DNA from: an uncultured Gemmatimonadota bacterium
GTDB taxonomy: Bacteria > Gemmatimonadota > Gemmatimonadetes > Palauibacterales > KS3-K002
Assembly (NCBI GenBank): GCA_964347085.1
Contig: CAYFXF010000006.1
Coordinates: 1,811 to 44,947, forward strand
Length of the DNA stretch: 43,137 bases
Reading direction: 5' to 3'
Shown here piece by piece: positions 18,410-36,289 of this stretch. Position numbers and translations under genes: made by a program. Numbering within the stretch: position 1 is the stretch's first letter; each line of letters starts with the position of its first letter. Under the pieces are notes generated by a model that was given only the letters and a program-made list of their open reading frames with translations, was not told the DNA's origin and ran no database searches.

Positions 18410-21316
18410 CTAAACTCGGGTCGGGGTGAGCTCGATCTCATCGAGGAAGAGGCTGCCGCCCGAGTCGCGGCCGCGCCGGCGATCGGTACGCGTCAGCACC
18501 AGCCGGTCCTTGGCGCGGGTCATCCCCACGTACAGCAATCGGCGCGCCTCCTCGATCTCTTCCCGCACGTTGTCAGTCGCGGCGAAATAGCCGGGGATCT
18601 GATAGTCTTCAACGCCGACCACGTAGACGCGCGAAAACTCGAGCCCCTTGGTCGAGTGGAGCGTGATCAGGTTCACCCGGTGCGGGTCCGCCTCCACGCC
18701 CTCGGAACTCGAGAGCGCCACAAGCTCGAGCAGCCGCCCCACCGCCGCCTCCAAGGTGTCGGCCCGGGCCGCCGCGGTCAGCATGCCCAGGCGCGCGACC
18801 GCGGCGGGATAGCGCTCGGCCGGCGAGCGCTGCGCCCGGATCCGCTCCATCAACCGGCGACCGCCCAGCCGCTTGATGACCTCGTCGAGCTCCGGCGCCT
18901 CGACTCCGGAGCGGGCCTGCTCGCCGGTGTAGAACTCGAGGCAGTCGCTGTAGCGGCCCAGGGCGTAGGGGACGGCCAGCTCGAACAGCAGCTTGTCCTC
19001 GTCGGTACGCCGGCGCCGCGGCTCCAGCGCCAGGCCCAGCCCGAGGTAGTCGAGCAGGTTGACCAGCGCCGCCTTGCGTGCGCGGACCCGCTTCTGGCGG
19101 TTGAGCCCAACGAATACGCGGGCCAGTGTGAGCGCGTCGTCGAGCGCGTGATGCTCACGGCCGGTCGCCACGCCGAATCGCGCGGCCAGGTCGCCCAGTC
19201 TCGCGCTCTCGCGGAAAAGCGAGCGGGCGAGCGGCAGCGTGTCGAAGAAGACGAGATCGTCGAATCCGGTGAAGCGGCCGGCCGAGCGGCGCAGGACCGG
19301 CACGTCAAATCGCAGGCCGTTGTGCGCTACCAGCACGTCGTCCCCTACGAAGCGGCGGAAGCGCGGCCAGATCTCTTCGAGCGTCGGCGCACCTCGCAGA
19401 TCGGTCACAGCGTACCCGTGTTTCTCGCGCGCCTCGGCGGCGATCGGCCTATCGCAGTACACCAGAGACCTGAAGGTATCGACGACCTGGCCGTCCCGGA
19501 CGCGCGCCGCGCCGAGCTCGATGATCTCGCAGGCCGCTGGATCGAGGTCGGTCGTCTCGAGGTCGAAAGTCACGAAGTCGCGGAGCAGGTCACCGAAATC
19601 GTGGCTGTGAATGAGCTGCAGTGCCTTGAAGAGTGTGGTGGCGAGCGGTCGCTCGCCCGACGCCGGGTCGAGCACCGGGTCGCGCGGGCCGGGATCGGCC
19701 TCCCGGGTCAGGTAAGGGACCGGGGCAGGGAAACGAATTGAAGCGAACATCCCGCGCAGAGCGATGCCTCTACCGCCGGCTGGCGCGACGTAGATCGGGC
19801 GGCCTTCGGAGACGCTGCGCCTCAGTTCGTCGGCCAGCTCGCGGGCGCCCGGGAAGCCCTCGGGATCTACCAGTTCGTCGTAATGCTCCTCGAGCCGGTT
19901 TTCATAGGGTCGCACGCGCTGCGAGAGCAACTCCTCGACGATCCCGGCGAGCGAGTCGTGCGACTCGGCCAGCGCGCGCAGATTCTCGACATGGTAGATG
20001 AAGCGCCAGGCCTTCTTGGTGTCGGGATGCTCCGGCGGGTGACGGCGCGCGTAGGCGCGCAGTGCCGCTAACAGGTCGGGCCCCGGCGCCGAGCCGAACG
20101 TGCCGACCTCCGCCAGCAGGTTCTGTGGGAGCAGCCGTTGGGCGAAGGCCTCGACCGCGACCGGGTCGTCGGGCGCCACGATCACGCGCAGCGACGCCAC
20201 CACGTAGGCGATCACCGGATCGTCCAGCAGCGAGCGGCCCCGAACCAGGCGGCAGGGGACGCCCGCGGCGATGAAGCGGTCCTCCAGGTCGTCGCCGACG
20301 GCATGCCGGCGGTAGAGCAAGGCGTATGCGCCCCAGCTCTGGCCGTGGCGCTCGCGGTCAGCCAGCAAGTCGCGCAGGATCCAGTCCGCCTCAGCCACTT
20401 CGTCGGGGAAAGCATGCGCTTCTACGTCAAACGGCGAGTCGCGCTCCGCCTCGATGTCCTTACGAAAGAGCTCCGGGTTCTCGCGCAGCAGCCTGCGGGC
20501 GACCTCGAAGATCTGGCGGCTGCAACGCCAGTTGCGGTCGAGGAGTACCGGTTCTTCGATCTCAAACTCGTTCTGGAAGCGCCAGAGGAGACGCGGGTCG
20601 CTGCCACGCCAGGAGAAGATCGACTGCTCGTCGTCGCCCACGGCGAAGATGTTGCGGTGTGTCTGTACGAGCCGCTTGATGACCGAGTACTGCGCGGCGT
20701 CGAGGTCCTGGAACTCGTCTACCAGCACGTAGTCCCAGTGCGCGCCGACCTGGGAGGCGACCTCCGGGTGTCGCGTTAAGAGGTCGTCGGTAAGGGCGAT
20801 GATATCGTCGAAGTCGACGAGGTTCTTCTCGCGCAGCAGCGAGATGTAGTTGTAGAAGATCGCCTCGTCGCCCTCGCTGAGTTCGTAGCCTTGGAGGCGC
20901 CGCCGCCCGAACAGGGTGAGTAGTCCCGTGCGCCGCTTGGCCGGGTAAACGCGCAGCCGCCGCAGCAAAAGTTCCTGGTATTGGTCATCGGCTACGCCGA
21001 ACCCCGGCTTGAGCCCGGCGGCCTCGGCCCGCTCGCGGAGCAAGCCGAGACAGAGGGCATGCAAGGTGCCGCGCGTGATGAGATCGGCGCGGGCGCCGAG
21101 GCGCCGGTGCAGGCGCACCGTGACCTCCTCCGCGGCCTTATTGGTGAAGGTCACCGCGCAGATCCGCTCGGGCGCGAAGCCAAGCGACTGGATGAGATAC
21201 TCGATCCGGCGAATCAGGCAGAACGTCTTGCCGGCGCCCGGCCCGGCCAGCACGAGGATGGGCCCGGGTGGCGACTCGATGGCGTCGGTTTGGCTAGCGA
21301 ACGGTTCCAGGGCCAT
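18410..21316 (-). CDS. UvrD/Rep/PcrA-family helicase with an internal DnaQ-like DEDDh 3'-5' exonuclease domain
   Basis: Helicase motifs: AGPGAGKT, TFTNKAA, VDEFQD, GDDEQSIF, NWRC, TLHSTKGLEF, YVGMTRAKDRL. Between motifs IV and V: FDLETTD, AHNGLRFDVPVL, HHALDDA (aa ~578-738 = nt 19103..19585). Confidence 0.85.
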   Translation of the reverse strand: MALEPFASQTDAIESPPGPILVLAGPGAGKTFCLIRRIEYLIQSLGFAPERICAVTFTNKAAEEVTVRLHRRLGARADLITRGTLHALCLGLLRERAEAAGLKPGFGVADDQYQELLLRRLRVYPAKRRTGLLTLFGRRRLQGYELSEGDEAIFYNYISLLREKNLVDFDDIIALTDDLLTRHPEVASQVGAHWDYVLVDEFQDLDAAQYSVIKRLVQTHRNIFAVGDDEQSIFSWRGSDPRLLWRFQNEFEIEEPVLLDRNWRCSRQIFEVARRLLRENPELFRKDIEAERDSPFDVEAHAFPDEVAEADWILRDLLADRERHGQSWGAYALLYRRHAVGDDLEDRFIAAGVPCRLVRGRSLLDDPVIAYVVASLRVIVAPDDPVAVEAFAQRLLPQNLLAEVGTFGSAPGPDLLAALRAYARRHPPEHPDTKKAWRFIYHVENLRALAESHDSLAGIVEELLSQRVRPYENRLEEHYDELVDPEGFPGARELADELRRSVSEGRPIYVAPAGGRGIALRGMFASIRFPAPVPYLTREADPGPRDPVLDPASGERPLATTLFKALQLIHSHDFGDLLRDFVTFDLETTDLDPAACEIIELGAARVRDGQVVDTFRSLVYCDRPIAAEAREKHGYAVTDLRGAPTLEEIWPRFRRFVGDDVLVAHNGLRFDVPVLRRSAGRFTGFDDLVFFDTLPLARSLFRESARLGDLAARFGVATGREHHALDDALTLARVFVGLNRQKRVRARKAALVNLLDYLGLGLALEPRRRRTDEDKLLFELAVPYALGRYSDCLEFYTGEQARSGVEAPELDEVIKRLGGRRLMERIRAQRSPAERYPAAVARLGMLTAAARADTLEAAVGRLLELVALSSSEGVEADPHRVNLITLHSTKGLEFSRVYVVGVEDYQIPGYFAATDNVREEIEEARRLLYVGMTRAKDRLVLTRTDRRRGRDSGGSLFLDEIELTPTRV

Positions 21317-21400
21317 CGCCCTTGACGCCTCCTAGTGCTGCAGACAAACTGATCTCCAAGCTCAAGTTAAGGCCGGGGACTCACAGGGGGGATATAAGCC

Positions 21401-21676
21401 ATGCCTGACATCAAAGTGTACACTACGCCGACTTGACCCTACTGCAAACTGGTCAAGGATTGGCTAGATGAACACGGTTGCGAGTACGAGGAGGCGGACA
21501 TCACCCAAGACGTCTTCCAGCTGCGTGAGTGGCGGGCGCTCACCGGTGGCGTCGGCGTCCCGGTGGTTGCGCACGGCAAGGACTTCGTCGTTGGATTCAA
21601 TGCTGAGCGGCTCGAGATGTTGCTCGACTGCTGCCGGCATACGAGTCCGGTCGTCCTCCCCCAGGAAGAGGAATAG
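21401..21676 (+). CDS. Glutaredoxin/NrdH-like redox protein with in-frame TGA (21434-21436) at the first Cys of CPYC; candidate selenoprotein (U-P-Y-C)
   Basis: ATG 21401 with GGGGGGA (21386-21392) upstream. Translation: MPDIKVYTTPT[TGA]PYCKLVKDWLDEHGCEYEEADI...TGGVGVPVVAHGKDFVVGFNAERLEMLL..., ending at TAG 21674-21676. Confidence 0.6.
21449..21467 (+). promoter_or_regulatory. Candidate SECIS-like hairpin 12 nt downstream of the in-frame TGA
   Basis: CUGGUCAA-GGA-UUGGCUAG: 8 pairs (C49-G67, U50-A66, G51.U65, G52-C64, U53.G63, C54-G62, A55-U61, A56-U60) with a GGA loop. Paired by hand, not with a folding program. Confidence 0.35.
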
Positions 21677-21748: not shown

Positions 21749-22084
21749 GTGAGGTTCTGGCCCCGGACGCCTCGCCCAACCCTTGTCGCTTCGGCCGGAA
21801 GCCGGTTATTTTGTAAGCTAAATACCGAATCAGACCATGGTGGGCGCCGGCCGCCCAGAGGGGACAGGATCGGGACACCGCGGCACCCGAAGGGCCTCGC
21901 CACCTGCTGCCACGGCGAGGAGCCGCACGTGGTCGGCTGGCGCTTCGTGAACGAGCGCCGCGCCGTGAATCTGGACCCGAACTGCGGCTGGGCGCGCGGC
22001 AAGGCGGACGTGCTCTATGTAGCGGACGCGTTCCAGGTGCTGGCCAAGCTGAACGAGTTGCTGGCTAGCGGCTCGAGCGGGTAG
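21749..22084 (+). CDS. Hypothetical Cys-rich protein; start uncertain
   Basis: The 3' two-thirds (..ATCCHGEEPHVVGWRFVNERRAVNLDPNCGWARGKADVLYVADAFQVLAKLNELL) has coding-like G/C3. The only canonical in-frame starts are GTG 21749 and GTG 21929. A good SD (GAGGGG 21858-21863) faces ATC 21869. Confidence 0.3.
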   Translation: MRFWPRTPRPTLVASAGSRLFCKLNTESDHGGRRPPRGDRIGTPRHPKGLATCCHGEEPHVVGWRFVNERRAVNLDPNCGWARGKADVLYVADAFQVLAKLNELLASGSSG

Positions 22085-24650: not shown

Positions 24651-24799
24651 CCCTCCAACCTCCAGCTCCGGCAGCAGCAAGGCGAGCGCTCGGAGATCTT
24701 AGCCTTCGACGCGGGGCGAATCCAGGTGTGCGGGGTGTCGGGCGGCGCGGCCGTCGGCCGCAGCGCCGGCCGGGTGTCGACTGGATGTCGATCGCGACC

Positions 24800-24829
24800 T
24801 TGACGTCTGTCGGACGTTTGTGGTACACT
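24800..24829 (+). promoter_or_regulatory. Candidate carH promoter with operator-like TGTGGTACA overlapping the -10
   Basis: TTGACG (24800-24805), 18-nt spacer, TACACT (24824-24829). TGTGGTACA at 24819-24827. ATG only 13 nt after the -10 (near-leaderless). Confidence 0.35.
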
Positions 24830-24841
24830 TGCGCTGGACAG

Positions 24842-25783
24842 ATGGCTGAGTCGAGCGAAAGCCGCCGCAAGCGGCATCCGATACAGGTGGTAGCGCGCCG
24901 GACGGGGCTGAGCCCGGACGTGCTGCGCGCTTGGGAGAAGCGCTACGGCGTGGTGGAACCGGGCCGCTCGGAGGGCGGACGCCGGCTATACTCGGATGAG
25001 GACATCGAGCGGCTGCGGCTGTTGCGGCGCGCGAGCCGGGTGGGCCGGCGGATCAGCCAGGTGGCCTTGCTGGGCACCGAGCAGCTCTCCGGGCTGGTGG
25101 AGGAGGACGAGCGCGAGGAGATCGAGACGGCGCCGGAGGGCGCTGGCGAAGCGACGGCAGCGGACGGTTTGCTCAAGGCGAGTCTGGCGGCGATGGAGCG
25201 ACTGGATGGGCGGGAGCTCGAGTCGACGCTCAATCGAGCCCTGGTGAGCCTCAGCGCTGCGGTGTTGATCGAGCAGGTCGCTTCGCCGCTCTTACGACGG
25301 GTCGGTGAACTGTGGGTGGAGGGGTCGGCGCGGCCGGCGCAGGAGCATTTGGTCTCAGCCGTGTTGCTGCGGGTTTTGGGCAAGTTGATCGAGAACGCGG
25401 AGGCCTCGAGCGCGGCCCCGGCGATCGTCGTAACGACGCCGGCGCACCAGGAGCACGAGTTCGGCGCGCTGTTCGTAGCGGCGACCGCGGCGGCGGAGGG
25501 GTGGCGGGTCATCTACCTGGGCGCCAATCTGCCGGCCGACGACATCGCGGCGGCAGTGCGCGAGACGGGCGCCGAGGCTGTGGCCGTGAGCATCGTGTAT
25601 CCGCCGGATGACGAAGAGATGGGTGACGAGCTGCGCGAGCTTCGGCTCAAGCTACCCCCGGCGGTCCCCGTTCTCGTGGGCGGTGCGGCGATCTCTTCCT
25701 ATCGCACGGTTCTCGACGAGATCGAGGCGATCGAACTCAGCTCGCTGGAAGAGCTACGCTCCATGCTGGCTGGGTTGCGCTGA
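24842..25783 (+). CDS. carH: MerR-family, B12-binding light-sensing regulator (CarH/LitR type)
   Basis: MerR HTH IQVVARRTGLSPDVLRAWEKRYG..RLYSDEDIERL. Wx9EH (ELWVEGSARPAQEHLV, nt 25313-25348). B12 module TTPAHQEHEFGA...SIV...LVGG. Confidence 0.8.
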   Translation: MAESSESRRKRHPIQVVARRTGLSPDVLRAWEKRYGVVEPGRSEGGRRLYSDEDIERLRLLRRASRVGRRISQVALLGTEQLSGLVEEDEREEIETAPEGAGEATAADGLLKASLAAMERLDGRELESTLNRALVSLSAAVLIEQVASPLLRRVGELWVEGSARPAQEHLVSAVLLRVLGKLIENAEASSAAPAIVVTTPAHQEHEFGALFVAATAAAEGWRVIYLGANLPADDIAAAVRETGAEAVAVSIVYPPDDEEMGDELRELRLKLPPAVPVLVGGAAISSYRTVLDEIEAIELSSLEELRSMLAGLR

Positions 25784-25799
25784 CTTCGATCGCGCCGCT

Positions 25800-26768
25800 T
25801 CAGACCGCTCTCCCTTTGCCTGAATCGCTCAGGCTCATCAACCCTTCAGGATAGGGATCGAAAAACGTCTGCGGCAGCAGGTAGTCCTGCTCAAACCTGA
25901 CGATCCAAGCCCGCAAGATAGAGGTCACCGCGCTCAGCGGCTGTTGCCCGTTTCGATAGCGGTCGATTGAAGTCTGGAAGAACGCCTTCTCGCGCTTGGT
26001 CAGCTGATCGGAGAAGTACCCCGAGGCATGCTGCAGCACGTTGATCACGGAGGTAGAGCGTGGCGTGCGAGCCAGCGCAGCTTGGAAATGTCTCTCGTAC
26101 TCGCCGACGATCTGCTCGAAGCTGGCGCGATCCGGGTTCGCGACCGTTCGGCCGAGGACCCTCAGCTCCTTCTGGCTGTAGGCCATGAGCAGGAACTTGT
26201 TGACCGAGTGGAAGCGCACGAGCTCGCGCATCGCCCCTGTCTTCTTGAGCTGCCGGAAGCGGGCCAGCGCGAAGAGCTTGGTGAGGAAGTGGTCGCGGAT
26301 CTTGTAATTGCGCAGCCGGCCCTCATCCTCGATCGCCAGCCCCTGATAACGCTCCAGCACGCGGCCGCCGAAGAAGCCCGCGCCCTTCTTGGCCGGAGCT
26401 GATTTGTCGGTTCCCTGGTAGATCTTGACGTCGGTAATCCCGCAGGAGGGCGAACGGTTCTTCAGGATGAACCCGTCGATCTCGCCTAACGACGAGAGGA
26501 AGCGGTCGCTGAATTCGACCATCTCGCTGGTCAGGTCTCGATCGGTGGTGGGTTGGAGCAGCCGCGCCTCGCCGTCGACTGCCACGATGCGCACCGGGTC
26601 GCGGGGCACCCCCAGCCCGATCTCCAGCTCGGGGCAGACCGGCAGGTAAGTCACGTACGGCTCGAGCTGTCGGACGAAATCGTAAGGGATAACCTGGGCG
26701 TTATAGCGCACAGGCTCGAGCTCCAGGCAGCGGCTCAAGACGACGACGGGCTTCGGGCGCTGGCTCAT
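25800..26768 (-). CDS. DUF523 (TudS-like) - DUF1722 (YbgA-like) fusion protein
   Basis: ATG 26768 preferred over 26852 (which lies in the AT-rich promoter island). VVLSRCLELEPVRYNAQ, PVCPELEIGLGVPR, NRSPSCG, then a YbgA-like helical C-terminus. Confidence 0.75.
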   Translation of the reverse strand: MSQRPKPVVVLSRCLELEPVRYNAQVIPYDFVRQLEPYVTYLPVCPELEIGLGVPRDPVRIVAVDGEARLLQPTTDRDLTSEMVEFSDRFLSSLGEIDGFILKNRSPSCGITDVKIYQGTDKSAPAKKGAGFFGGRVLERYQGLAIEDEGRLRNYKIRDHFLTKLFALARFRQLKKTGAMRELVRFHSVNKFLLMAYSQKELRVLGRTVANPDRASFEQIVGEYERHFQAALARTPRSTSVINVLQHASGYFSDQLTKREKAFFQTSIDRYRNGQQPLSAVTSILRAWIVRFEQDYLLPQTFFDPYPEGLMSLSDSGKGRAV

Positions 26769-26824
26769 CCGCTTAGGGGGTTTGGCGTGTGGCGTGGCTG
26801 CCGTGCGTTGCCCATGCTGTGACC

Positions 26825-26894
26825 AATACAAAGATAGACATATTATTGACAAATACTGAGTGTCTAGATAGATTGTAGTACATCAGGTGTACAA
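26825..26894. promoter_or_regulatory. AT-rich divergent promoter island with operator-like motifs
   Basis: Plus strand: TTGACA (26846-51)-17-TAGATT (26869-74). Minus strand: TTGTAC (26894-89)-18-TATCTA (26870-65). TGTCTAG 26861-67, TGTAGTACA 26874-82, TGTACA 26888-93. Confidence 0.45.
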
Positions 26895-27040
26895 AGCGCC
26901 CCGGTTGCCCTTGATTGGGTCAACAATAACGAGTACAAGTGGTGTGACAAGCAGATGATCGTGGCGAAGGCGAAACAGTTGTTCCAATCAGGAGCCCGCC
27001 GTGGCGATCGCCGCCGGCGAGGCTCCCCCGTCGGGAGCGG

Positions 27041-28543
27041 ATGCATAACGTGGTGAGACGAGTCGCGAGCGGGCCGCGGATTCTGCTGAGCGGCGCTTCC
27101 GGCTATGTCGGCGGTCGGCTGCTGGAAGCTCTGGAGGGGCGCGGGGCGCGTGTCCGCTGTCTGGCGCGGCGGCCTGAGTTCTTGAGGGCGCGTGTGAGTC
27201 CGGAGACCGAGGTCGTGCGAGGCGACGTGCTGGAGGCCGAGTCGTTGCAGACGGCGCTCGAGGGGGTCGAGGTGGCCTACTATCTGGTCCACTCGATGGG
27301 TTCGAGGGGTAACTTCGAGGAGGAGGACCGACGCGGGGCTCGGAACTTCGCTCGTGCGGCCAGGCAGGCCGGGGTGGCGCGTATCATCTATCTCGGGGGC
27401 CTGGGACACGAACCGGGCTTATCGCGGCATCTGCGAAGCCGACAGGAGGTGGGTCGCGTGCTGCGGGAGTCGGGTGTGCCGACCGTGGAGTTTCGGGCCT
27501 CGATCATCATCGGATCCGGCAGCCTTTCGTTCGAGATGATTCGGGCGCTGGTGGAGAAGCTGCCCGTAATGATCACGCCGCGCTGGGTGAGCGAGACGGC
27601 GCAGCCGCTGGCAGTCGAGGACCTGGTCGATTACCTGACGGCCGCGATCGATGTGGAGCTGACGGGGAGCGAGGTGTTCGAGATCGGCGGGGCGGACCAG
27701 GTCTCCTACATGGAGATCATGCGGGAGTATGCGCGCCAGCGCGGTTTGAGGCGCTGGATGTTGAAGGTGCCGGTACTCACACCGCGCCTATCGAGCCTCT
27801 GGCTGGGACTTGTCACGCCGGTGTATGCCCGAGTGGGCCGCGAGCTGATCGACAGCGTGCGCAACGCCACGGTGTGCAGGGACGATACGGCACTGAAAGC
27901 ATTTCCGATCCGTCCGCGCGGAATTCGAGCGGCGATCGAACGTGCGCTGGCCAAGGAAGATCGCGACTTCGAGGCGACCCGTTGGTCGGATGCTTTGTCC
28001 TCCGGCGGGTCACGCAGCTTCGGCGGCCCTTCATTCGGATCGCGGATCGTCGATTCACGCTCGGCTGACGTTTTTTACACGCCCCGGGAGGCGTTCCGAC
28101 CAATTCGCAGGCTAGGTGGTCAAGTCGGATGGTACTTCGCGGATTGGCTGTGGCGCCTCCGGGGCTTCGTCGACTTGCTGGTCGGTGGCGTCGGCTCGCG
28201 CCGCGAGCGGCGCGACAGCGAGGAGCTAGCGCCGGGCGACACGGTCGACTTCTGGCGGGTCGAGGAGATCATCCCCGACGAATTGTTGCGGCTGTACGCC
28301 GAGATGAAGCTGCCGGGGCGGGCCTGGCTGCAGTTCGAGGTCGAGCCGAACGGGCGAGGCTCCACGGTTCGTCAGACGGCGGTCTTCGACCCGATCGGCC
28401 TTGCTGGGCGCCTCTATTGGTACGCGCTCTATCCGCTACACCATGCTGTGTTCGCCGGGATGTTGCGAGGTATATTGCGCGCGATGGGCGAGGGGTCCGA
28501 GGAAGCGCTCACCCAGACGGCCGGAGCCCGCCGGCCGGGATAG
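27041..28543 (+). CDS. NAD(P)-binding (NmrA/SDR-like) protein with C-terminal DUF2867-like domain
   Basis: ILLSGASGYVGGRLL Rossmann motif. Long C-terminal domain as in SDR-DUF2867 fusions. Confidence 0.7.
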   Translation: MHNVVRRVASGPRILLSGASGYVGGRLLEALEGRGARVRCLARRPEFLRARVSPETEVVRGDVLEAESLQTALEGVEVAYYLVHSMGSRGNFEEEDRRGARNFARAARQAGVARIIYLGGLGHEPGLSRHLRSRQEVGRVLRESGVPTVEFRASIIIGSGSLSFEMIRALVEKLPVMITPRWVSETAQPLAVEDLVDYLTAAIDVELTGSEVFEIGGADQVSYMEIMREYARQRGLRRWMLKVPVLTPRLSSLWLGLVTPVYARVGRELIDSVRNATVCRDDTALKAFPIRPRGIRAAIERALAKEDRDFEATRWSDALSSGGSRSFGGPSFGSRIVDSRSADVFYTPREAFRPIRRLGGQVGWYFADWLWRLRGFVDLLVGGVGSRRERRDSEELAPGDTVDFWRVEEIIPDELLRLYAEMKLPGRAWLQFEVEPNGRGSTVRQTAVFDPIGLAGRLYWYALYPLHHAVFAGMLRGILRAMGEGSEEALTQTAGARRPG

Positions 28544-28631
28544 TAGCACGTCGACCGTCGCAACTGCCCCGCCGTCGCAGCTCGACACCACCCCGGAAGC
28601 GAAGGCTTGCCTTGAGCTACCGCGGTGCTGC

Positions 28632-30002
28632 TCAGCGTCCCAGCTCGTGGCGCAGGGCGCCTTCGAGCTCTGGCTGGGTGAATCGGTAGCTCGCCGCTTC
28701 CAGCCGGCGCGGCTCGACCCGCGCGCCCTCGAGAAATAGCACGCGACCCATCTCGCCAAACATCAACTCGATGATCGGGGCGGGCAGCGGCAAGGGCGTG
28801 GGCCGGCGCAGCACGCGGCCCAGCGTCTTGGTGTACTCGCGGTTGGTCAGCGGTCGCGGAGCCACAGCGTTGACGGGGCCGGCCAGGCTGTTGTCGAAGA
28901 GCAGGTGGAGGACGGCGCCGAGCAGGTCGTCGAGCACGATCCAGCTGAAGCCCTGCCGCCCATCTCCCAGCACACCGCCCAGCCCCAGCCGGAAGGGCGG
29001 AAGCATCCGCCGCAGCGCTCCGCCTGCCGCGCTGAGCACGACCCCGATCCGCAGGTTGACGACGCGGATCCCCGCCGCGCGAGCGGGCTCGGTCGCCGCC
29101 TCCCACTCGCGGCAGAGCTCGGCGAGGAATCCGCTGCCGAGGGCGCTGTCCTCGTGCAGGACCTCGGTGCCGCGGTCGCCGTAGCAGCCGATCGCGGAAG
29201 CGGCGATCAGCACGCGGGGTCGGCGTTTGAGTCGGGCGAGCGTCTCGCAGAGGAGCCGAGTGCTGGCGATGCGGCTCTCGCGTATCTCACGCTTGATGCC
29301 GGGGCTCCAGCGCCAAGCGGCGATGCTGCGGCCGGAGAGGTGGACCGCCGCGTCGATCCCCTCCAAGCGTTCGCGATCGATCGTCTCCGCGGCGGGCTCC
29401 CACGAGACTTCGCCGGCCTCGGGATGCGCTTCGCGGCGGACCAGGCGCAAGACCTGGTGGCCTCCCGTCGAGAGGAAGGACCAGAGCTGCTGGCCGATAA
29501 GCCCGGAGCTGCCGGTTAGCGCGATCTTGAGGCGCGGCCGTCCGCGATAGGCGGCATGGCGCGCCAGGTCGTCGGCGGTGCGCCGGTGGCGGAAGCGGAA
29601 CATGCGCGCGAGGTCGCGGCGGACAAAGCCGCCGACGATGCGTTCACTGATCGGCGCCAGCGGTAGCGCGTAGTCGATCGTGTCTTCGAGCCGGCAGCGG
29701 TTGGCGCCCTCGTGGCTCACCCAGTGCGTGTGGCGCCATTGGGCGAACGGCCCCTCGGCCTGCTCGTCTGTGAACCCTCGGCCCGGCTGGACGTCTCGGT
29801 GTACCGCGACCCAGCGCAGCTTGAAGGGCCCGCGGCGTAGGTGCAGAACCGTTCGCGCATTCTCCTTTATGCCCCCGCTGCTCAGTACCTCGATGCGTTC
29901 CCAAGGAGGGATGAGACGCTCAAGGGCCCCGGGCCGGGCATGCCAGGTGAAGACTTCCTCGGCCGAGTAGGGCAGGTCGGTAGAGTGGAGGAAGCGAGGC
30001 AC
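28632..30002 (-). CDS. SRPBCC/START-like domain fused to YfcH/TIGR01777-type epimerase-like SDR (DUF1731)
   Basis: N-terminus: FTWHARPGALERLIPPWE...FAQWRHTHW. Then ALTGSSGLIGQQL Rossmann and C-terminal FRLGLGGVLGDGRQGFSWIVLDD...RFTQPEL. Confidence 0.75.
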   Translation of the reverse strand: MPRFLHSTDLPYSAEEVFTWHARPGALERLIPPWERIEVLSSGGIKENARTVLHLRRGPFKLRWVAVHRDVQPGRGFTDEQAEGPFAQWRHTHWVSHEGANRCRLEDTIDYALPLAPISERIVGGFVRRDLARMFRFRHRRTADDLARHAAYRGRPRLKIALTGSSGLIGQQLWSFLSTGGHQVLRLVRREAHPEAGEVSWEPAAETIDRERLEGIDAAVHLSGRSIAAWRWSPGIKREIRESRIASTRLLCETLARLKRRPRVLIAASAIGCYGDRGTEVLHEDSALGSGFLAELCREWEAATEPARAAGIRVVNLRIGVVLSAAGGALRRMLPPFRLGLGGVLGDGRQGFSWIVLDDLLGAVLHLLFDNSLAGPVNAVAPRPLTNREYTKTLGRVLRRPTPLPLPAPIIELMFGEMGRVLFLEGARVEPRRLEAASYRFTQPELEGALRHELGR

Positions 30003-30005
30003 GGA

Positions 30006-31681
30006 TCATTTCCCGTGGCGCCGCGCATCATGTGGCCCAAGCGTCGCGCCCGCGGCGAGCGTCTCCTGCACCCAGCGGTACACGGCCTGATCGTGGCGTC
30101 GGCGTTCCGGCGCCCGCTTTGCGAGTGAGGCGAGTGGAAGCCTGAGTCGCGGAATCTGGCCCAGGGTCTCGCGGTGGCGGTCGAGAAAAGCCCAGTAGAG
30201 GTGGGTAATCGGGCAATTGCGCTTGGGGTCGAACGCACACTCGTCACAGTAATCGCTCATCCGATTGATGTAGGCGGCCCCCGAGACGTAGGGCTTCGTC
30301 GTCATCAGGTCGCCCAAAGCGAAGGCACCCATGCCCAGAACGTTGGGCTCGACCACCCAATCGTAGGCGTCGCTGTACGCGACCCAGAACCAGTCGGTCA
30401 ACTCGCGCGGAGTGACGTCGAGCAGCGTGCCGATATTGGCGAGCACCATGAGGCGGGTGATGTGGTGGCTATAGGCGCTGGTCCAGACCTCCGACACGAC
30501 ATGATCGACACAGCGAAGCCCAGAGCGCACTCCCCAGAAAGCCGCCGGTAGCGATCGCGTGCTGCCCAGGGCGTTGGGGGCCGCGCCGCCGTCCAGCCCC
30601 GCCACGCCCTCGGAAGCTGGCCACGCCTCTCCCGACCAGGCTCGAAAGCCGCCGTCGCCCGGTTGCTTTGCCAACTTGGGCGCGCCGTCCGGTAGGCTGC
30701 GGAAACCGTCCGTCGCCCGGTGCACGTGTCGGACGAACTCACGCCAGCCTAACACCTGGCGCACGAATCCTTCAACGCTATTCAGCGGCGCCTCGGAGTG
30801 GAGCGCGTCCTGCACGACACGTTCCGGCAGGAGGCGGTGCAGGTTGAGCAGCGCCGAGGCGCGCGTATGGAAGAGCCCCGCGGACCGAGCGGACATTGCG
30901 TCTTCGTAAGGACCGAACTCGGTGAGACAATGGGTTCGGGCCCAGTGCCAGAGCGATTCGGCGTCGGCGGCCGTGGCCGGCAGGGCCGGGAGGTCGAGGT
31001 CCCCGGGGTGACGGTCGAATCGCTGCCGGATGAGGTCGCCGACCTCCTGCTTGATCTCGTCGACGGGGAAGCTCGGGGGCGTCGGAGCGGCCGGCTCGCC
31101 GTGCCAGGGTTCGCGGTTCTCGGCGTCGAGGCTGTACTTGCCGCCTACGGGTTTGCCGTCCTGCATGAGGATTCCGCTGGCGCGGCGCACGTGGCGGTAG
31201 AAAGCGTCCATGCGCCAGGGCGGCGCGCCCTTCGCTTGACTGGCTTGGAATTGCTGGGCCGTGGTCAACCAGCCGTCGTGCGCAACCAGTTTCAAGGCGC
31301 CCGACTCGACCAGCGGCTCGAGATCTGCCCGCAATTCTCGCTCGGCCGGCTCCATCGCCTGCAGCATGCCGAGCTCGGAGGCGAGCGGGTGAAGTGCGTC
31401 TCGGTAGCGCCCGTAGGTCGAGATGTAGCGCACGGCGACGCCGCGCGCCGCCTGTTCCAAGGCGAAATGCCGCTGGTTCGCGAGCACGAGCGCGAGCTTC
31501 TGCTTGTGGTAGGGCCGCCGGTCGCCTTTCCAGGCATTCTCGATCAGGACGATCCCCACCTCGGCGGGCTTGGCATCGGCGAGCGGGCCAATCCGGTCGG
31601 ACAGCTGGTCGTAGGCGATGTAGACCCAGCGGCGTCCCCCGGGATCCGGCTGTCGCTCCGCTAACGCTCGAGCGAACGCGC

Positions 31682-31685
<4 letters not shown>
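30006..31685 (-). CDS. FeS-BCP / CryPro-type cryptochrome-photolyase family protein (PhrB/CryB-like, (6-4) photolyase type)
   Basis: GTG 31685 (GTGA overlap with the photolyase stop) inside ORF 30006..32093. WVYIAYDQL, DRRPYHKQKLALVL, GWREFVRHV. Four-Cys pattern C..(~90)..DYCDEC..(~8)..NCP as in the 4Fe-4S photolyases. Confidence 0.8.
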
Positions 31686-33145
<1,460 letters not shown>

Positions 33146-33361
33146 CTTCCCTCGCTTGTCGGACCGATTGCGTCGACCGGGCGAGCGCTCTCGTCGAGTG
33201 GCCCAGCGGCCACGGCGCGGCCGGCCGGTCGCGGTATCAGTCTGCGGGGCCGCGCCGACCGCGTCCAGGGGAGGGTCGCGGACGGCCGTCGCGGGAGGAG
33301 TCGGCGCCGCTCCGATCGGGCGGAGGGCGGGGCGCGCGCGGCCTGGGCCTTGTATAAGGTA

Positions 33362-33416
33362 TGTCTAGTATACGACCATACCAAGCCTTGACAATTGGAA
33401 GACGGTGCTATATGTT
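33362..33416. promoter_or_regulatory. AT-rich divergent promoter island (photolyase operon / fasciclin gene) with -35 boxes overlapping on opposite strands
   Basis: Plus strand: TTGACA (33388-93)-17-TATGTT (33411-16). Minus strand: TTGTCA (33394-89)-16-TATACT (33372-67). TGTCTAG 33362-68. TGTAGTA..GTAC at 33462-73 lies further downstream. Confidence 0.45.
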
Positions 33417-33496
33417 GTCGAACATTGGTTAGACATAGTAGTCCTGGGGGGATTCCATGAGTGTAGTATGTACCACATTTCAAAGGGGAGGGTGAC

Positions 33497-34021
33497 ATGA
33501 AGCGCAACGTTCTCATTTCCGCGATCGGTCTGGCCGCTTTCTTCGCCAGCACGGCGCCCGTGGCGGCTCAGAGCTACTCGAAGTCCGAGAAGCAGATGAA
33601 GAAGCAGAAGGACATCGTCGAGACGGCGGTGGCCGCGGGCCCGTTCAACACCCTGGTGGCCGCGGTCAAAGCGGCGGGCCTGGTCGAGACGTTGAAGGGT
33701 GAGGGTCCGTTCACCGTTTTCGCGCCCACGGATGACGCGTTCGAGAAGCTGCCGGCGGGCACCGTCGAGGAGCTTTTGAAGCCGGAGAACCGCGACAAGC
33801 TGACGGCCGTTCTCACTTACCACGTCGTGCCGGGCAAGCTGATGGCGGCAGACGTCGTTAATACGAAGTCGGCGAAGACGTTGCAGGGGCAGAGTGTGCG
33901 GTTCGAGGTGAAGGAGGGTCAGGCGATGATCGATAACGCCCGCATCATCAAGACCGACATCGCTACCAGCAACGGCGTTATCCACGTGCTCGACACGGTT
34001 ATTCTGCCGGCGAGCGAGTAA
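33497..34021 (+). CDS. Secreted fasciclin (FAS1) domain protein
   Basis: GGGGAGGG SD, signal peptide [58 protein letters not shown]. Confidence 0.85.
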
Positions 34022-34121
34022 ATCCGGCGAGTATCGTCCAGCGGATGCGACCCGAGTCTTGGACAGCAAGTGGTGCTACGGGTAAGCGCTGTCGGAGGAC
34101 GGACGATCAGGGGACGAGCGG

Positions 34122-34184
34122 GGGGAGGGTGAGCAAGGACACCTCTCCCCGCGCAACATTAGGCGAGTACGAGCTCGTCTCGCC
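34122..34184 (+). terminator. Two tandem GC-rich hairpins after the fasciclin gene (possible terminator/attenuator, no T-tract)
   Basis: GGGGAGGGTG..CACCTCTCCCC (34122-34150) and GGCGAGTACGAGCTCGTCTCGCC (34162-34184). Confidence 0.3.
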
Positions 34185-34238
34185 TCAAGCAGTTGGCGCT
34201 TTCATGCAAACAGGGCTGGCGGAGAACTGGGGGACGAG

Positions 34239-35009
34239 ATGAACTCAGTTGAACCTTTGGAACCCGTGCCCGGCGCGGTCCACGTGGTGCTCGGCGCCAC
34301 CGGTGGGATCGGCTCGGCGTTGTCGCGAAGGTTGGTGGCGGGTGGCGCCCGTCTGTTGCTGGCCGCGCGGAACGCGGAGAAGCTCGACGAGCTGGCCGGA
34401 TCACTTGATGCCGAGTGGTTGACACTGGATGCGACCCGGTTCGAGGACGTAGACGGCTGCGTGTCGCTGGCGATCGAGAAGTATGGTCGAGTCGATGGTA
34501 TCGCCAACTGTGTCGGTTCGGTGCTGTTGAAGCCGGCGCACCTCACGCACGAGGACGAATGGAACGCAACCCTGGCCTTGAATCTCGGTTCGGCGTTCGC
34601 TACTGTCCGCGCCGGGGCGCGCGGTATGATGAAGGACGGCGGCTCCATCGTACTCGTTTCCTCGGCGGCTGCGCGTGTCGGTCTTGTCAATCACGAGGCG
34701 ATCGCGGCGGCCAAGGCGGGGATCAACGGGCTCGTGCTGTCGGCGGCTGCATCATACGCGCGTCATGGCATTCGGGTAAATGCCGTGGCCCCCGGCTTAG
34801 TGCGGACGCCGCTGACCGAGCGCCTGACGGCGAATGAGGCGTCGGAACGAGCCTCGATCGCCATGCATGCTGTGGGGCGGCTGGGCATGCCGAGGGACGT
34901 GGCCTCGGTGATGGCCTGGCTGCTGAACCCGCGCAACGATTGGGTCACAGGCCAGGTGCTCGGGATCGACGGCGGACTGTCGACGGTGCGCCCACGAGTC
35001 ACAGCCTGA
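34239..35009 (+). CDS. Short-chain dehydrogenase/reductase (SDR)
   Basis: VVLGATGGIGSAL, NCVG, SSAAARVG...AAAKAG (YxxxK position variant), VNAVAPGLVRTP. Confidence 0.8.
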   Translation: MNSVEPLEPVPGAVHVVLGATGGIGSALSRRLVAGGARLLLAARNAEKLDELAGSLDAEWLTLDATRFEDVDGCVSLAIEKYGRVDGIANCVGSVLLKPAHLTHEDEWNATLALNLGSAFATVRAGARGMMKDGGSIVLVSSAAARVGLVNHEAIAAAKAGINGLVLSAAASYARHGIRVNAVAPGLVRTPLTERLTANEASERASIAMHAVGRLGMPRDVASVMAWLLNPRNDWVTGQVLGIDGGLSTVRPRVTA

Positions 35010-35020
35010 AAAGACAAGCC

Positions 35021-36289
35021 ATGCCCGTTACCGAAGCTACGGACGTCGTGGTCGTCGGTGCCGGCCTGGCCGGGCTCGCCTGCGCGGTGAGGCTCCGGAG
35101 CGCCGGTCTGTCGGTGACCGTGCTCGAGGCCGCCGATGCCGTAGGCGGTCGGGTGCGTACGGACCGGCACGACGGATTTCGGCTAGATCGTGGCTTTCAG
35201 GTCTTGCTCACCGCCTATCCGGAGGCGTCTCGGCTTGTGAACCAAGACGCGCTCGGCCTGCGCGCGTTCACCCCGGGCGCCTTGGTCCGTGTGGGTGGCG
35301 CGTTTCACCGAGTTGCGGACCCGCGGAGGAGGCCGGGCGACCTGCTGGCGACGCTCAGGGCACCAGTGGGCAGCATGGCGGACAAGCTGCGCATCGACCG
35401 GCTTCGAAGCCGGGTAGGGAAAGGTACGATCGAGCATCTGCTAGCGCGCCCTGAGACGACGACGCTCGCGGCACTGCGCGCCTTCGGCTTCTCGGACCTG
35501 ATCATCGAACGGTTCATGCGGCCGTTTCTGGGCGGGATATTTCTCGAGCGCGACCTTGAGACATCGAGCCGCATGTTCGAGTTCGTGTTTCGCATGTTCG
35601 CCCAGGGTGATGCCGCGCTTCCCCGCGAGGGCATGGAAGCGATACCCCGCCAGCTGGCGGAGCGGCTGGACGACGGGGTTGTGCGCTTGGGGGCGCGGGT
35701 GGAGGCCGTGGGTGCCGACGGGGTCGCGCTCGCGGGCGGCGAACAGGTCGCGAGCCGTGCGGTGGTAGTGGCGGCGGATGGCCCGAACGCGGCGCGACTG
35801 GTGCCCGGCCTGCCGGAGCCGGGTTCGAGGGCCGTCACCTGCCTCTACTTCGCTGCCGCCCGGCCGCCGACCGAGGAGCCGTTGCTCGTGCTAAACGGGG
35901 AAGGTCGTGGACCGGTCAACAATCTCTGCGTCCCGAGCCAGGTGGCGCCGAGCTACGCGCCCCCCGGCGCCGCACTCGTCTCGGTGACGGTCCTGGGGTG
36001 CCCGAAGACTCGCGACGCGGAGCTGGAGCGTTCGGTGCGAGACCAGTTGCGGGGCTGGTTCGGTGAAGAGGTCGAGGCTTGGCGGCACCTGCGGACCTAT
36101 CGCATCCGAGACGCGCTGCCGGCTCAGACCCCGCCGGCCTACGGGGGCGGGATGAGAGAAGTGCGCATAGGCCGCGGGCTCTATGTTTGTGGCGATCACC
36201 GCGAAAGGGCCTCGATCGAAGGAAGCCTGGTCTCTGGCCGCCTGGCCGCGGAGGCGGTGGTCGCCGATCTGGTGGGCGCCGCGGCTTGA
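35021..36289 (+). CDS. NAD(P)/FAD-dependent oxidoreductase (amine-oxidase / phytoene-desaturase-like)
   Basis: ATG 35021 inside ORF 34940..36289. VVVVGAGLAGLACAVRL...VLEAADAVGGRVRT dinucleotide fold. C-terminal GLYVCGD. Confidence 0.8.
   Translation: MPVTEATDVVVVGAGLAGLACAVRLRSAGLSVTVLEAADAVGGRVRTDRHDGFRLDRGFQVLLTAYPEASRLVNQDALGLRAFTPGALVRVGGAFHRVADPRRRPGDLLATLRAPVGSMADKLRIDRLRSRVGKGTIEHLLARPETTTLAALRAFGFSDLIIERFMRPFLGGIFLERDLETSSRMFEFVFRMFAQGDAALPREGMEAIPRQLAERLDDGVVRLGARVEAVGADGVALAGGEQVASRAVVVAADGPNAARLVPGLPEPGSRAVTCLYFAAARPPTEEPLLVLNGEGRGPVNNLCVPSQVAPSYAPPGAALVSVTVLGCPKTRDAELERSVRDQLRGWFGEEVEAWRHLRTYRIRDALPAQTPPAYGGGMREVRIGRGLYVCGDHRERASIEGSLVSGRLAAEAVVADLVGAAA

Follow-up and report, generated by a model that had tools for sequence, protein, structure and literature searches.

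A glutaredoxin-like gene with one in-frame TGA codon

Does the TGA codon inside a small glutaredoxin-like gene end translation, or does it direct the insertion of selenocysteine (Sec, U)? This question is raised by a gene on the forward strand at 21401-21676 of a 43,137-nt stretch of DNA from an uncultured Gemmatimonadota bacterium, the whole of which is referred to below as the window. The gene comprises 91 sense codons from ATG 21401 to TAG 21674-21676, and its sole in-frame TGA is codon 12 (21434-21436). The first-pass annotation of this DNA had reported these positions, together with a GGGGGGA run at 21386-21392, and had proposed a U-P-Y-C selenoprotein with a Sec insertion sequence (SECIS); all of its coordinates match the sequence, and its translation is identical to ours. 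Our analysis makes it very probable that the gene encodes a genuine selenoprotein glutaredoxin of the UxxC type and contains a canonical in-frame bacterial SECIS. The evidence consists of the reading frame, a conserved TGA that pairs with Cys in orthologues, purifying selection upstream and downstream of this codon, a conserved and covarying hairpin, and the fold predicted for a Cys orthologue 81% identical to the window protein; in addition, TGA is not reassigned here. The product is well supported as a predicted small thiol/selenol-disulfide oxidoreductase with a glutaredoxin-type thioredoxin fold, in which the attacking residue would be Sec (U12-P-Y-C15).

The TGA lies within T-[TGA]-P-Y-C, where it occupies the first position of the CxxC motif. 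No in-frame ATG, GTG or TTG was present between the TGA and codon 55, which is GTG, and the open reading frame (ORF) listing of the window was empty in the frame of this gene, as the first-pass annotation had noticed. The window gene could therefore be expressed only by read-through of the TGA. Among the 31 Pfam-supported genes of the window, 22 end with TGA, which shows that TGA is an ordinary stop codon and that there is no genome-wide reassignment. When the window was scanned for other coding frames split by TGA, none was found besides this gene, and the other matches were antisense shadows or adjacent genes. A purine-rich run of the GGAGG type was found 5' of the start in most homologous loci, and the start codon in these loci was ATG, except in L015 (GTG).

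Conservation of the TGA codon and selection on its flanks

A genome scan with one genome per species gave 13 related loci, 12 in metagenome-assembled genomes (MAGs) of Gemmatimonadota/Gemmatimonadales and one (L013) in an unclassified bacterial MAG. The TGA was at the same codon in all 11 of the genome-scan loci that cover the N-terminus, with the frame intact to residue 88-98, and a metagenome scan added three further TGA forms (L014-L016). The TGA-type set used below holds 18 distinct loci (the window, L001-L011, L014-L016, L102/L103, L104 and L105), so that the search for homologues with TGA in the same column, suggested by the first-pass annotation, yielded 17 loci besides the window. The TGA was invariant in 18/18 of these diverged loci, the downstream frame was intact, and no frameshifts or extra stops were found; the loci with a named source are Gemmatimonadota MAGs. 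The TGA form is also carried by the complete MAG chromosomes CP070722.1 and CP070823.1. Invariance in 18 diverged loci places the observation beyond chance.

Full-length relatives in the databases have 86-99 residues, carry a C-x-x-C motif (CPYC, CPWC, CSYC and others) and are 53-81% identical to the window protein. The Cys orthologues P0001-P0015 and others, which are 66-81% identical, have the first Cys of C-x-x-C in the TGA column. Likewise, alignment of 26 full-length Cys homologues to the window protein showed an invariant Cys in the TGA column, which bears out the earlier placement of the TGA at the nucleophilic Cys position. TGA and Cys in one column is, at the level of sequence, a classic Sec/Cys pair.

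The proportions of differing synonymous (pS) and nonsynonymous (pN) sites were determined for the 18 TGA-type genes. Upstream of the TGA (codons 2-11), pS was 0.43 and pN 0.095, giving a pN/pS of 0.22, and downstream of it (codons 13-84) pS was 0.51 and pN 0.10, giving a pN/pS of 0.20. A ratio of about 0.2 on both flanks indicates that translation of the 11 codons preceding the TGA uses the frame of the remaining gene. The TGA itself was unchanged across copies whose synonymous sites differ at about 43-53%. The first-pass annotation had argued against a decayed pseudogene, and this argument holds for the relatives as well, in which the frame downstream of the TGA is intact and codons 13-84 show the pN/pS of 0.20.

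Codon choice around the TGA was also inspected. The Thr codons flanking it (window 21422-21439 and the TGA-type loci) are unusually fixed for a genome rich in G and C at third codon positions, Thr11 being ACT in 14/15 and Thr8 in 11/13, and the base 3' of the TGA is C in all copies (UGA-C). These fixed codons may reflect a context effect on Sec decoding. A separate Gemmatimonadota contig, L012 (1345-1570), has the C-terminal 66 codons of the gene intact, while its first 23 codons, including U-P-Y-C and the SECIS, are replaced by unrelated sequence; the locus is a relic of truncation, or else the short contig is chimeric.

A SECIS-like hairpin after the TGA

Twelve nucleotides past the TGA, at 21449-21467, the first-pass annotation had proposed a stem of 8 bp capped by a GGA loop. 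This hairpin was recovered as part of the minimum-free-energy (MFE) fold; it begins 12 nt after the TGA, and the spacing from UGA to the loop is 20 nt. The same hairpin was present at the same place in the folds of every TGA-type sequence, and the core CAAGGATTGGC was found in all TGA-type loci. No change was seen in the loop or the five pairs beneath it (G-[U/C]-C-A-A GGA U-U-G-G-C), save for one pairing-neutral U/C substitution. The core spans codons [V/A]18-K19-D20-W21, of which AAG-GAT-TGG was invariant (15/15). Synonymous variation was thus suppressed in the hairpin core (AAG and GAT, 15/15). Asp codons elsewhere in the gene are mostly GAC (GAC to GAT 11:4 at codon 33, 13:2 at codon 37, 12:3 at codon 61 and 10:5 at codon 76), and the T of the GAT at Asp20 is required for an A-U pair in the stem.

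The lower stem varies by lineage yet stays complementary, with the arm pairs CUG/UAG, GUUG/UGAC, GUUA/UGAC, CUG/UGG, CCUC/GAGG, ACUG/CAGU, GUG/CAC and CUU/AAG. Bulges of zero, one or two nucleotides occur in it among the relatives, many of which have a U bulged on the 3' arm, and its complementarity is kept through the codon chosen for Leu17 and through the variable residue 23. The pairing was examined by an arm-swap permutation test on the MFE, in which cognate arms gave a mean of -8.62 kcal/mol and swapped arms -6.09 +/- 0.38 kcal/mol; 0/5000 permutations reached the observed value, and a version with 15 sequences gave 0/2000. Shared ancestry somewhat inflates this test, although the sequences contain six or more distinct complementary arm pairs.

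The bacterial SECIS (bSECIS) model calls for 3-9 nt in the apical loop, with G in its first two positions, 4-16 bp in the upper stem, a UGA-loop distance of 16-37 nt and an MFE of -7.5 kcal/mol or lower (PMC13188914). The geometry of the window hairpin agrees with this model in its GGA loop (A-GGA-U, corresponding to N1-G-[G|U]-N-N2), its stem of 8 bp, whose upper 5 bp are invariant, and its 20-nt spacing. The earlier statement that position and shape are those of a bacterial SECIS is thus supported by loop, stem and spacing, together with the conservation of the hairpin and the covariation of its lower stem. Compared with the E. coli fdhF-type SECIS and the bSECIS consensus, the hairpin is alike in lying within the coding sequence directly after the UGA and in having a small loop with G in the first positions. 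It differs in that its 3-nt loop is closed by two A-U pairs, in the marginal MFE of the bare hairpin and in the bulged U of relatives.

Fold and closest known systems

With Cys in place of the TGA, the window protein matched the Pfam family Glutaredoxin (PF00462) over residues 4-63 with 51.5 bits, against a gathering cutoff of 22.9. The AlphaFold model of P0001, the Cys orthologue that is 81% identical to the window protein, was used as the structure model. It has a predicted local distance difference test score (pLDDT) of 85 and a glutaredoxin-type thioredoxin fold (beta4-8, alpha13-24, beta29-33, alpha38-48, beta55-58, beta61-64, alpha68-79) with C-x-x-C at the start of helix 1. In the cis-Pro loop, P54 was invariant and V53 near-invariant in the homologue alignment. 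A Foldseek search with this model returned glutaredoxins (Grx), NrdH and related short redoxins as top matches, with query-normalised TM-scores of 0.67-0.76, and NrdH and BC3987 structures were among the top. The glutaredoxin/NrdH-type thioredoxin fold that the first-pass annotation had read from the motifs is borne out by the Pfam score, the P0001 model and these structural matches.

None of the curated NCBIfam models reached its cutoff with the window protein. The best matches were YruB (TIGR02196, 65.8 bits against 88.55), the Uxx-star families NF041212 (57.2 against 66), NF041114 (25.3 against 72) and NF041211 (44.4 against 100), and NrdH-redoxin (TIGR02194, 45 against 85.75), all of which are short CxxC/UxxC thioredoxin-fold proteins of about 75-90 residues. 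The hallmark of Uxx-star, which we take from the NCBIfam name to be Sec at a distance of three residues from the stop, is absent, as the window protein ends ...LPQEEE-TAG with no C-terminal TGA. The window protein is predicted to be a member of the glutaredoxin superfamily that belongs to none of the curated YruB, Uxx-star or NrdH subfamilies. It appears nearer to the YruB/NrdH-like short redoxins, and dependence on glutathione is a candidate trait only. Besides U/CxxC, the residues C27, H58 and C77 are conserved across the family in the homologue alignment, with C78 often following C77 and H80 often present as well. These residues could form a second redox or metal site that is absent from ordinary glutaredoxins.

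The best sequence match in PDB was cGrx1 of Clostridium (Alkaliphilus) oremlandii OhILAs (7C10, E = 2.9e-11, residues 3-80), whose first motif Cys, the native Sec position, aligned with the window TGA codon. cGrx1 carries the motif U(or C)PXC, is natively a selenoprotein and was crystallised with Cys in place of Sec (PMC7642778); its status as a selenoprotein goes back to Kim et al. 2011, as cited in PMC13188914. Both proteins have a short Grx fold with Sec first in U-P-x-C in the same column, and the cGrx1 structures (7C10/7C12) took ranks 3-5 in the Foldseek search with the P0001 model (TMq 0.70-0.76, TMt 0.86-0.91). However, the identity between cGrx1 and the window protein is only about 37%, and cGrx1 lacks the conserved C27, H58, C77/C78 and H80 and the acidic C-terminal tail of the Gemmatimonadota family. 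The partner of cGrx1 is a selenoprotein MsrA, whereas no msrA adjoins the window gene, whose conserved neighbour encodes a UvrD-exonuclease helicase. The hosts also differ, that of cGrx1 being an anaerobic Firmicute and that of the window gene belonging to a different phylum.

Glutaredoxin (PF00462, UxxC) is an experimentally verified bacterial selenoprotein family (PMC13188914, PMC7642778) that occurs as a Sec form (Sec-Grx) in a limited number of species (PMC13188914, PMC9312934). Earlier genome surveys found Sec-Grx in Geobacter, Moorella and Alkaliphilus (PMC1794560). The Grx selenoproteins of Geobacter sulfurreducens, Moorella thermoacetica and Alkaliphilus metalliredigenes share with the window gene the PF00462 domain, UxxC and a SECIS within the coding sequence immediately downstream (PMC1794560, PMC9312934, PMC13188914). 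In contrast to the known Grx selenoproteins, which are mostly from anaerobic Deltaproteobacteria and Clostridia, the present clade is from Gemmatimonadota MAGs and has no selenoprotein annotation in the public records examined. As Sec-Grx is already known experimentally, the window gene is an unannotated addition to an established selenoprotein family and no novel type of system.

Proposed decoding and catalysis

Translation would begin at ATG 21401. When the ribosome reaches the UGA at 21434-21436, the mRNA hairpin at 21449-21467 would recruit SelB carrying GTP and Sec-tRNA(Sec), as in bacterial Sec insertion elsewhere. With the apical loop GGA 20 nt past the UGA, Sec would be inserted instead of termination, and translation would then proceed to TAG 21674. 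In the folded protein, the selenolate at the N-terminus of helix 1 would attack a substrate disulfide, sulfenate or mixed disulfide, as in glutaredoxins that have been studied. Cys15 would resolve the intermediate to give a selenenylsulfide, which would be reduced by a cellular reductant. By analogy with these systems we infer the dependence on SelB and the incorporation of selenium, as well as the substrate and the reductant.

Points against Sec insertion

Several results weigh against the assignment of this gene as a selenoprotein, and part of them concern the decoding machinery. ARAGORN detected no tRNA-Sec, and no other tRNA, in the 43-kb window or in L001-L013. Pfam scans of about 40 window ORFs revealed no SelA, SelB or SelD, and tblastn searches with the E. 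coli SelA, SelB and SelD gave no match in the window and about 528 kb of fetched loci, part of which are from Gemmatimonadota. Because the genes for Sec synthesis and insertion (sel genes) can lie apart from those for selenoproteins, their absence from the window and the fetched loci is uninformative. A SelA profile (E. coli and Aquifex) was also searched against a set of 5.8 billion proteins; among the 120 matches listed all were enterobacterial, a result that is uninformative on Gemmatimonadota. In the library searched, queries on selenocysteine in Gemmatimonadota, Gemmatimonadetes or Gemmatimonas returned no report of Sec use, and to our knowledge the phylum is not noted for it.

The remaining points on this side concern the hairpin. 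Its bare 28-nt form has an MFE of -7.4 kcal/mol, which is borderline against the bSECIS threshold of -7.5 kcal/mol, and the stem is short; only with flanking pairs did the MFE fall below the threshold, to -10.1 kcal/mol (51 nt) and -12.5 kcal/mol (67 nt), and in relatives it ranged from -4.5 to -12.3 kcal/mol. The 67-nt region folds no better than its shuffled versions (z = +0.83). A search of Rfam gave no family at the gathering threshold, and the sole sub-threshold match was an irrelevant sRNA outside the gene (E = 8). Fixed-register pair counts on the ungapped alignment gave weak signals, and RNAalifold recovered only the invariant 5-bp upper stem. Both methods support no more than the upper stem, as the relatives use different registers in the lower stem, and on account of these shifts the arm-swap MFE test was used in place of fixed-register counts.

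The closest Cys (TGC) forms keep the CAAGGATTGGC core, namely L094/P0001 (357-632), L096/P0002 (1599-1874), L097/P0003 (1916-2200) and L106/P0015 (170-445), so that the hairpin also occurs outside the TGA forms. L094 retains the complete 8-bp stem, and the more distant Cys forms L017-L022 and L098 are without the core. Conservation of the core could thus partly reflect the K-D-W residues or shared ancestry instead of SelB binding. Recent switching between Sec and Cys with the SECIS retained is the simplest reading of the core in Cys forms.

Alternative explanations

If the TGA were a true stop, the real product would be a glutaredoxin-like protein lacking the N-terminus, with its start downstream of the TGA at M/V/L-[AV]KDWL or at the MRDHG that follows. 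Public gene calls do have this form for many relatives (P0016-P0019, P0022, P0024, P0025, P0027, P0028, P0032-P0035 and P0038): they are fragments of 71-75 residues named 'hypothetical protein', 'glutaredoxin' or 'arsenate reductase-like glutaredoxin family protein'. However, the DNA behind three of these short calls (P0034, P0038 and P0025), which was retrieved at four loci (L102, L103, L104 and L105), had in 4/4 cases the full upstream frame M-x-x-IKVYTTPT-TGA-P-[YW]-C, which indicates that such entries are selenoprotein genes cut at the TGA. In the window the matching codons are CTG GTC, and the gap in start codons up to codon 55 and the lack of a listed ORF in the frame leave the short product without a start. 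Moreover, purifying selection acts on the 11 codons 5' of the TGA (pN/pS 0.22), which encode the conserved M-x-x-I-K-V-Y-T-T-P-T behind a ribosome-binding site, and a short product would be without strand beta-1 of the P0001 model and both active-site residues. A truncated protein as the real product is extremely unlikely on these grounds.

The TGA might instead be decoded but not as Sec, by read-through with a near-cognate tRNA (Trp or Cys) or by a lineage-specific suppressor, with the hairpin acting as a generic stimulator of read-through. UGA-C is a weak termination context, and its presence in all copies would fit such decoding, as would the failure to find sel machinery in the window and the fetched loci (about 528 kb). 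Against it stands the nature of residue 12, the redox nucleophile, where only Cys or Sec would be functional and which pairs with an invariant Cys in orthologues. In addition, the geometry and loop of the hairpin are a specific match to the SelB-type bSECIS model, the closest relative with a characterised structure has Sec at the position of residue 12 (PMC7642778), and TGA terminates most genes of the window. A single change from TGA to TGC or TGT would supply Cys efficiently, yet the TGA is kept across a pS of about 0.5. Decoding other than as Sec is therefore judged very unlikely. A pseudogene, or a sequencing or assembly error at 21434-21436, might be suspected from the loss of the N-terminal 23 codons in L012 and from the apparent rearrangement of the window just 3' of the gene. 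However, the same TGA was found in 17 other independently assembled contigs from different samples, in genes with no frameshifts, no extra stops and a pN/pS of 0.2. There is almost no chance that decay or error explains the TGA, and the comparative data effectively refute it.

Sec and Cys forms among the relatives

A neighbour-joining tree of 66 residues, built with no resampling support, placed the Cys form P0001 inside the main Sec clade, and the Sec form L016 beside the Cys form P0015 in another clade. The topology of Sec/Cys switching from so short a tree is suggestive only. Nested among Sec forms and with an intact SECIS hairpin, the Cys form P0001/L094 would be a Sec-to-Cys reversion. 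A 2026 review describes such reversion as a rare event among bacteria, confined mainly to FdhA and SelD. The hairpins in Cys forms may be fossil SECIS elements left after Sec-to-Cys reversion, or they may be older than the switch to Sec. That the genes make up a Gemmatimonadota-wide, so far unannotated clade of Sec-glutaredoxin-like proteins, with its own conserved Cys/His set and repeated Sec/Cys switching, is a tentative proposal about which we remain rather doubtful; if true, these traits, in a phylum not noted for Sec use, would set the clade apart from an ordinary addition to the family.

Genomic context

The positions of the gene, its elements and its neighbours are given in Table 1. The Sec-Grx gene appears monocistronic. 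It is preceded by a ribosome-binding site of its own, and about 115 nt downstream lies a terminator-like hairpin; the scan for such hairpins gave 3 overlapping matches, against 0.5 expected in shuffled sequences. The divergent helicase gene was found directly upstream of the Sec-Grx gene in 13 TGA-type loci, with its product at 69-73% amino acid identity, and no functional link is claimed. Neighbouring proteins encoded in the window are about 54-78% identical (most of them 62-78%) to those of named Gemmatimonadota MAGs, and this assigns the window to the phylum.

Table 1. Features of the window around the Sec-Grx gene
Feature	Position	Strand	Basis or remark
Glutaredoxin-like selenoprotein, coding sequence of 91 residues (MPDIKVYTTPT-U-PYCKLVKDWL...), stop TAG	21401..21676	+	Reading frame, Pfam PF00462, pN/pS
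Shine-Dalgarno-like purine run GGGGGGA	21386..21392	+	8 nt upstream of ATG; read directly from the sequence
In-frame TGA, proposed Sec codon (residue 12, nucleophilic position of U-P-Y-C)	21434..21436	+	Invariant in 18/18 TGA-type loci
TGC, resolving Cys15 of UxxC	21443..21445	+	Read from the sequence; invariant in protein and codon alignments
SECIS-like hairpin, 8-bp stem (CUGGUCAA / UUGGCUAG), apical loop GGA at 21457-21459	21449..21467	+	MFE fold, conservation, arm-swap test
Invariant hairpin core GUCAAGGAUUGGC	21452-21464	+	Conserved in TGA-type loci
Predicted terminator-like GC hairpin followed by TTATTTTG	21788..21812	+	About 115 nt 3' of the stop; consensus match only
UvrD-family (UvrD/PcrA-type) helicase, 968 residues, RNase_T/DEDD 3'-5' exonuclease domain inserted at residues 582-735	18410..21316	-	Pfam; divergent neighbour
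MerR + B12-binding regulator, CarH-like	24728-25783		Pfam
DUF523/DUF1722	25800-26852		Pfam
NAD-binding/DUF2867 protein	27041-28543		Pfam
Polyketide-cyclase/epimerase fusion	28632-30002		Pfam
Photolyase-related DPRP protein	30006-32093		Pfam
SDR + flavin amine-oxidase/desaturase-like protein	34239-36289		Pfam

Downstream of the gene, the window differs from its relatives. The last ~60 codons (about 21902-22081) of an ORF at 21749-22084 (+) are 82-92% identical to the C-terminal end of the gene for the electron transfer flavoprotein (ETF) alpha-subunit, etfA, which in the relatives L102, L104, L008, L001, L004 and L010 lies 8-9 kb downstream of the Sec-Grx gene. In L102-L104, genes for an acyl-CoA dehydrogenase, ETF-QO and ETF-beta stand between the Grx gene and etfA, with a Tricorn-type protease as well in L102/L103, and these genes are absent from the window. 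The arrangement suggests either a deletion of ~9 kb that left a 3' remnant of etfA or an assembly join around 21.7-21.9 kb. Further downstream, at 24728-36289, the window holds a run of genes that resembles a light- or photo-damage-response cluster.

Significance

The general picture of bacterial selenoproteins is unchanged by this gene, and its value lies mainly in annotation and evolution. Public gene calls are wrong wherever the TGA form occurs, since they give fragments without the active site, and the window gene would go uncalled altogether. Because no curated NCBIfam model reaches its cutoff, automatic pipelines will go on missing the Sec-Grx family. The dense mixture of Sec and Cys orthologues, with hairpins kept in some of the Cys forms, provides a compact natural data set on the origin and decay of SECIS elements in coding sequences. 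For the organisms, the gene implies that these Gemmatimonadota lineages, which come from sediment and saline metagenomes, keep a complete Sec machinery and that a part of their thiol redox metabolism relies on selenium.

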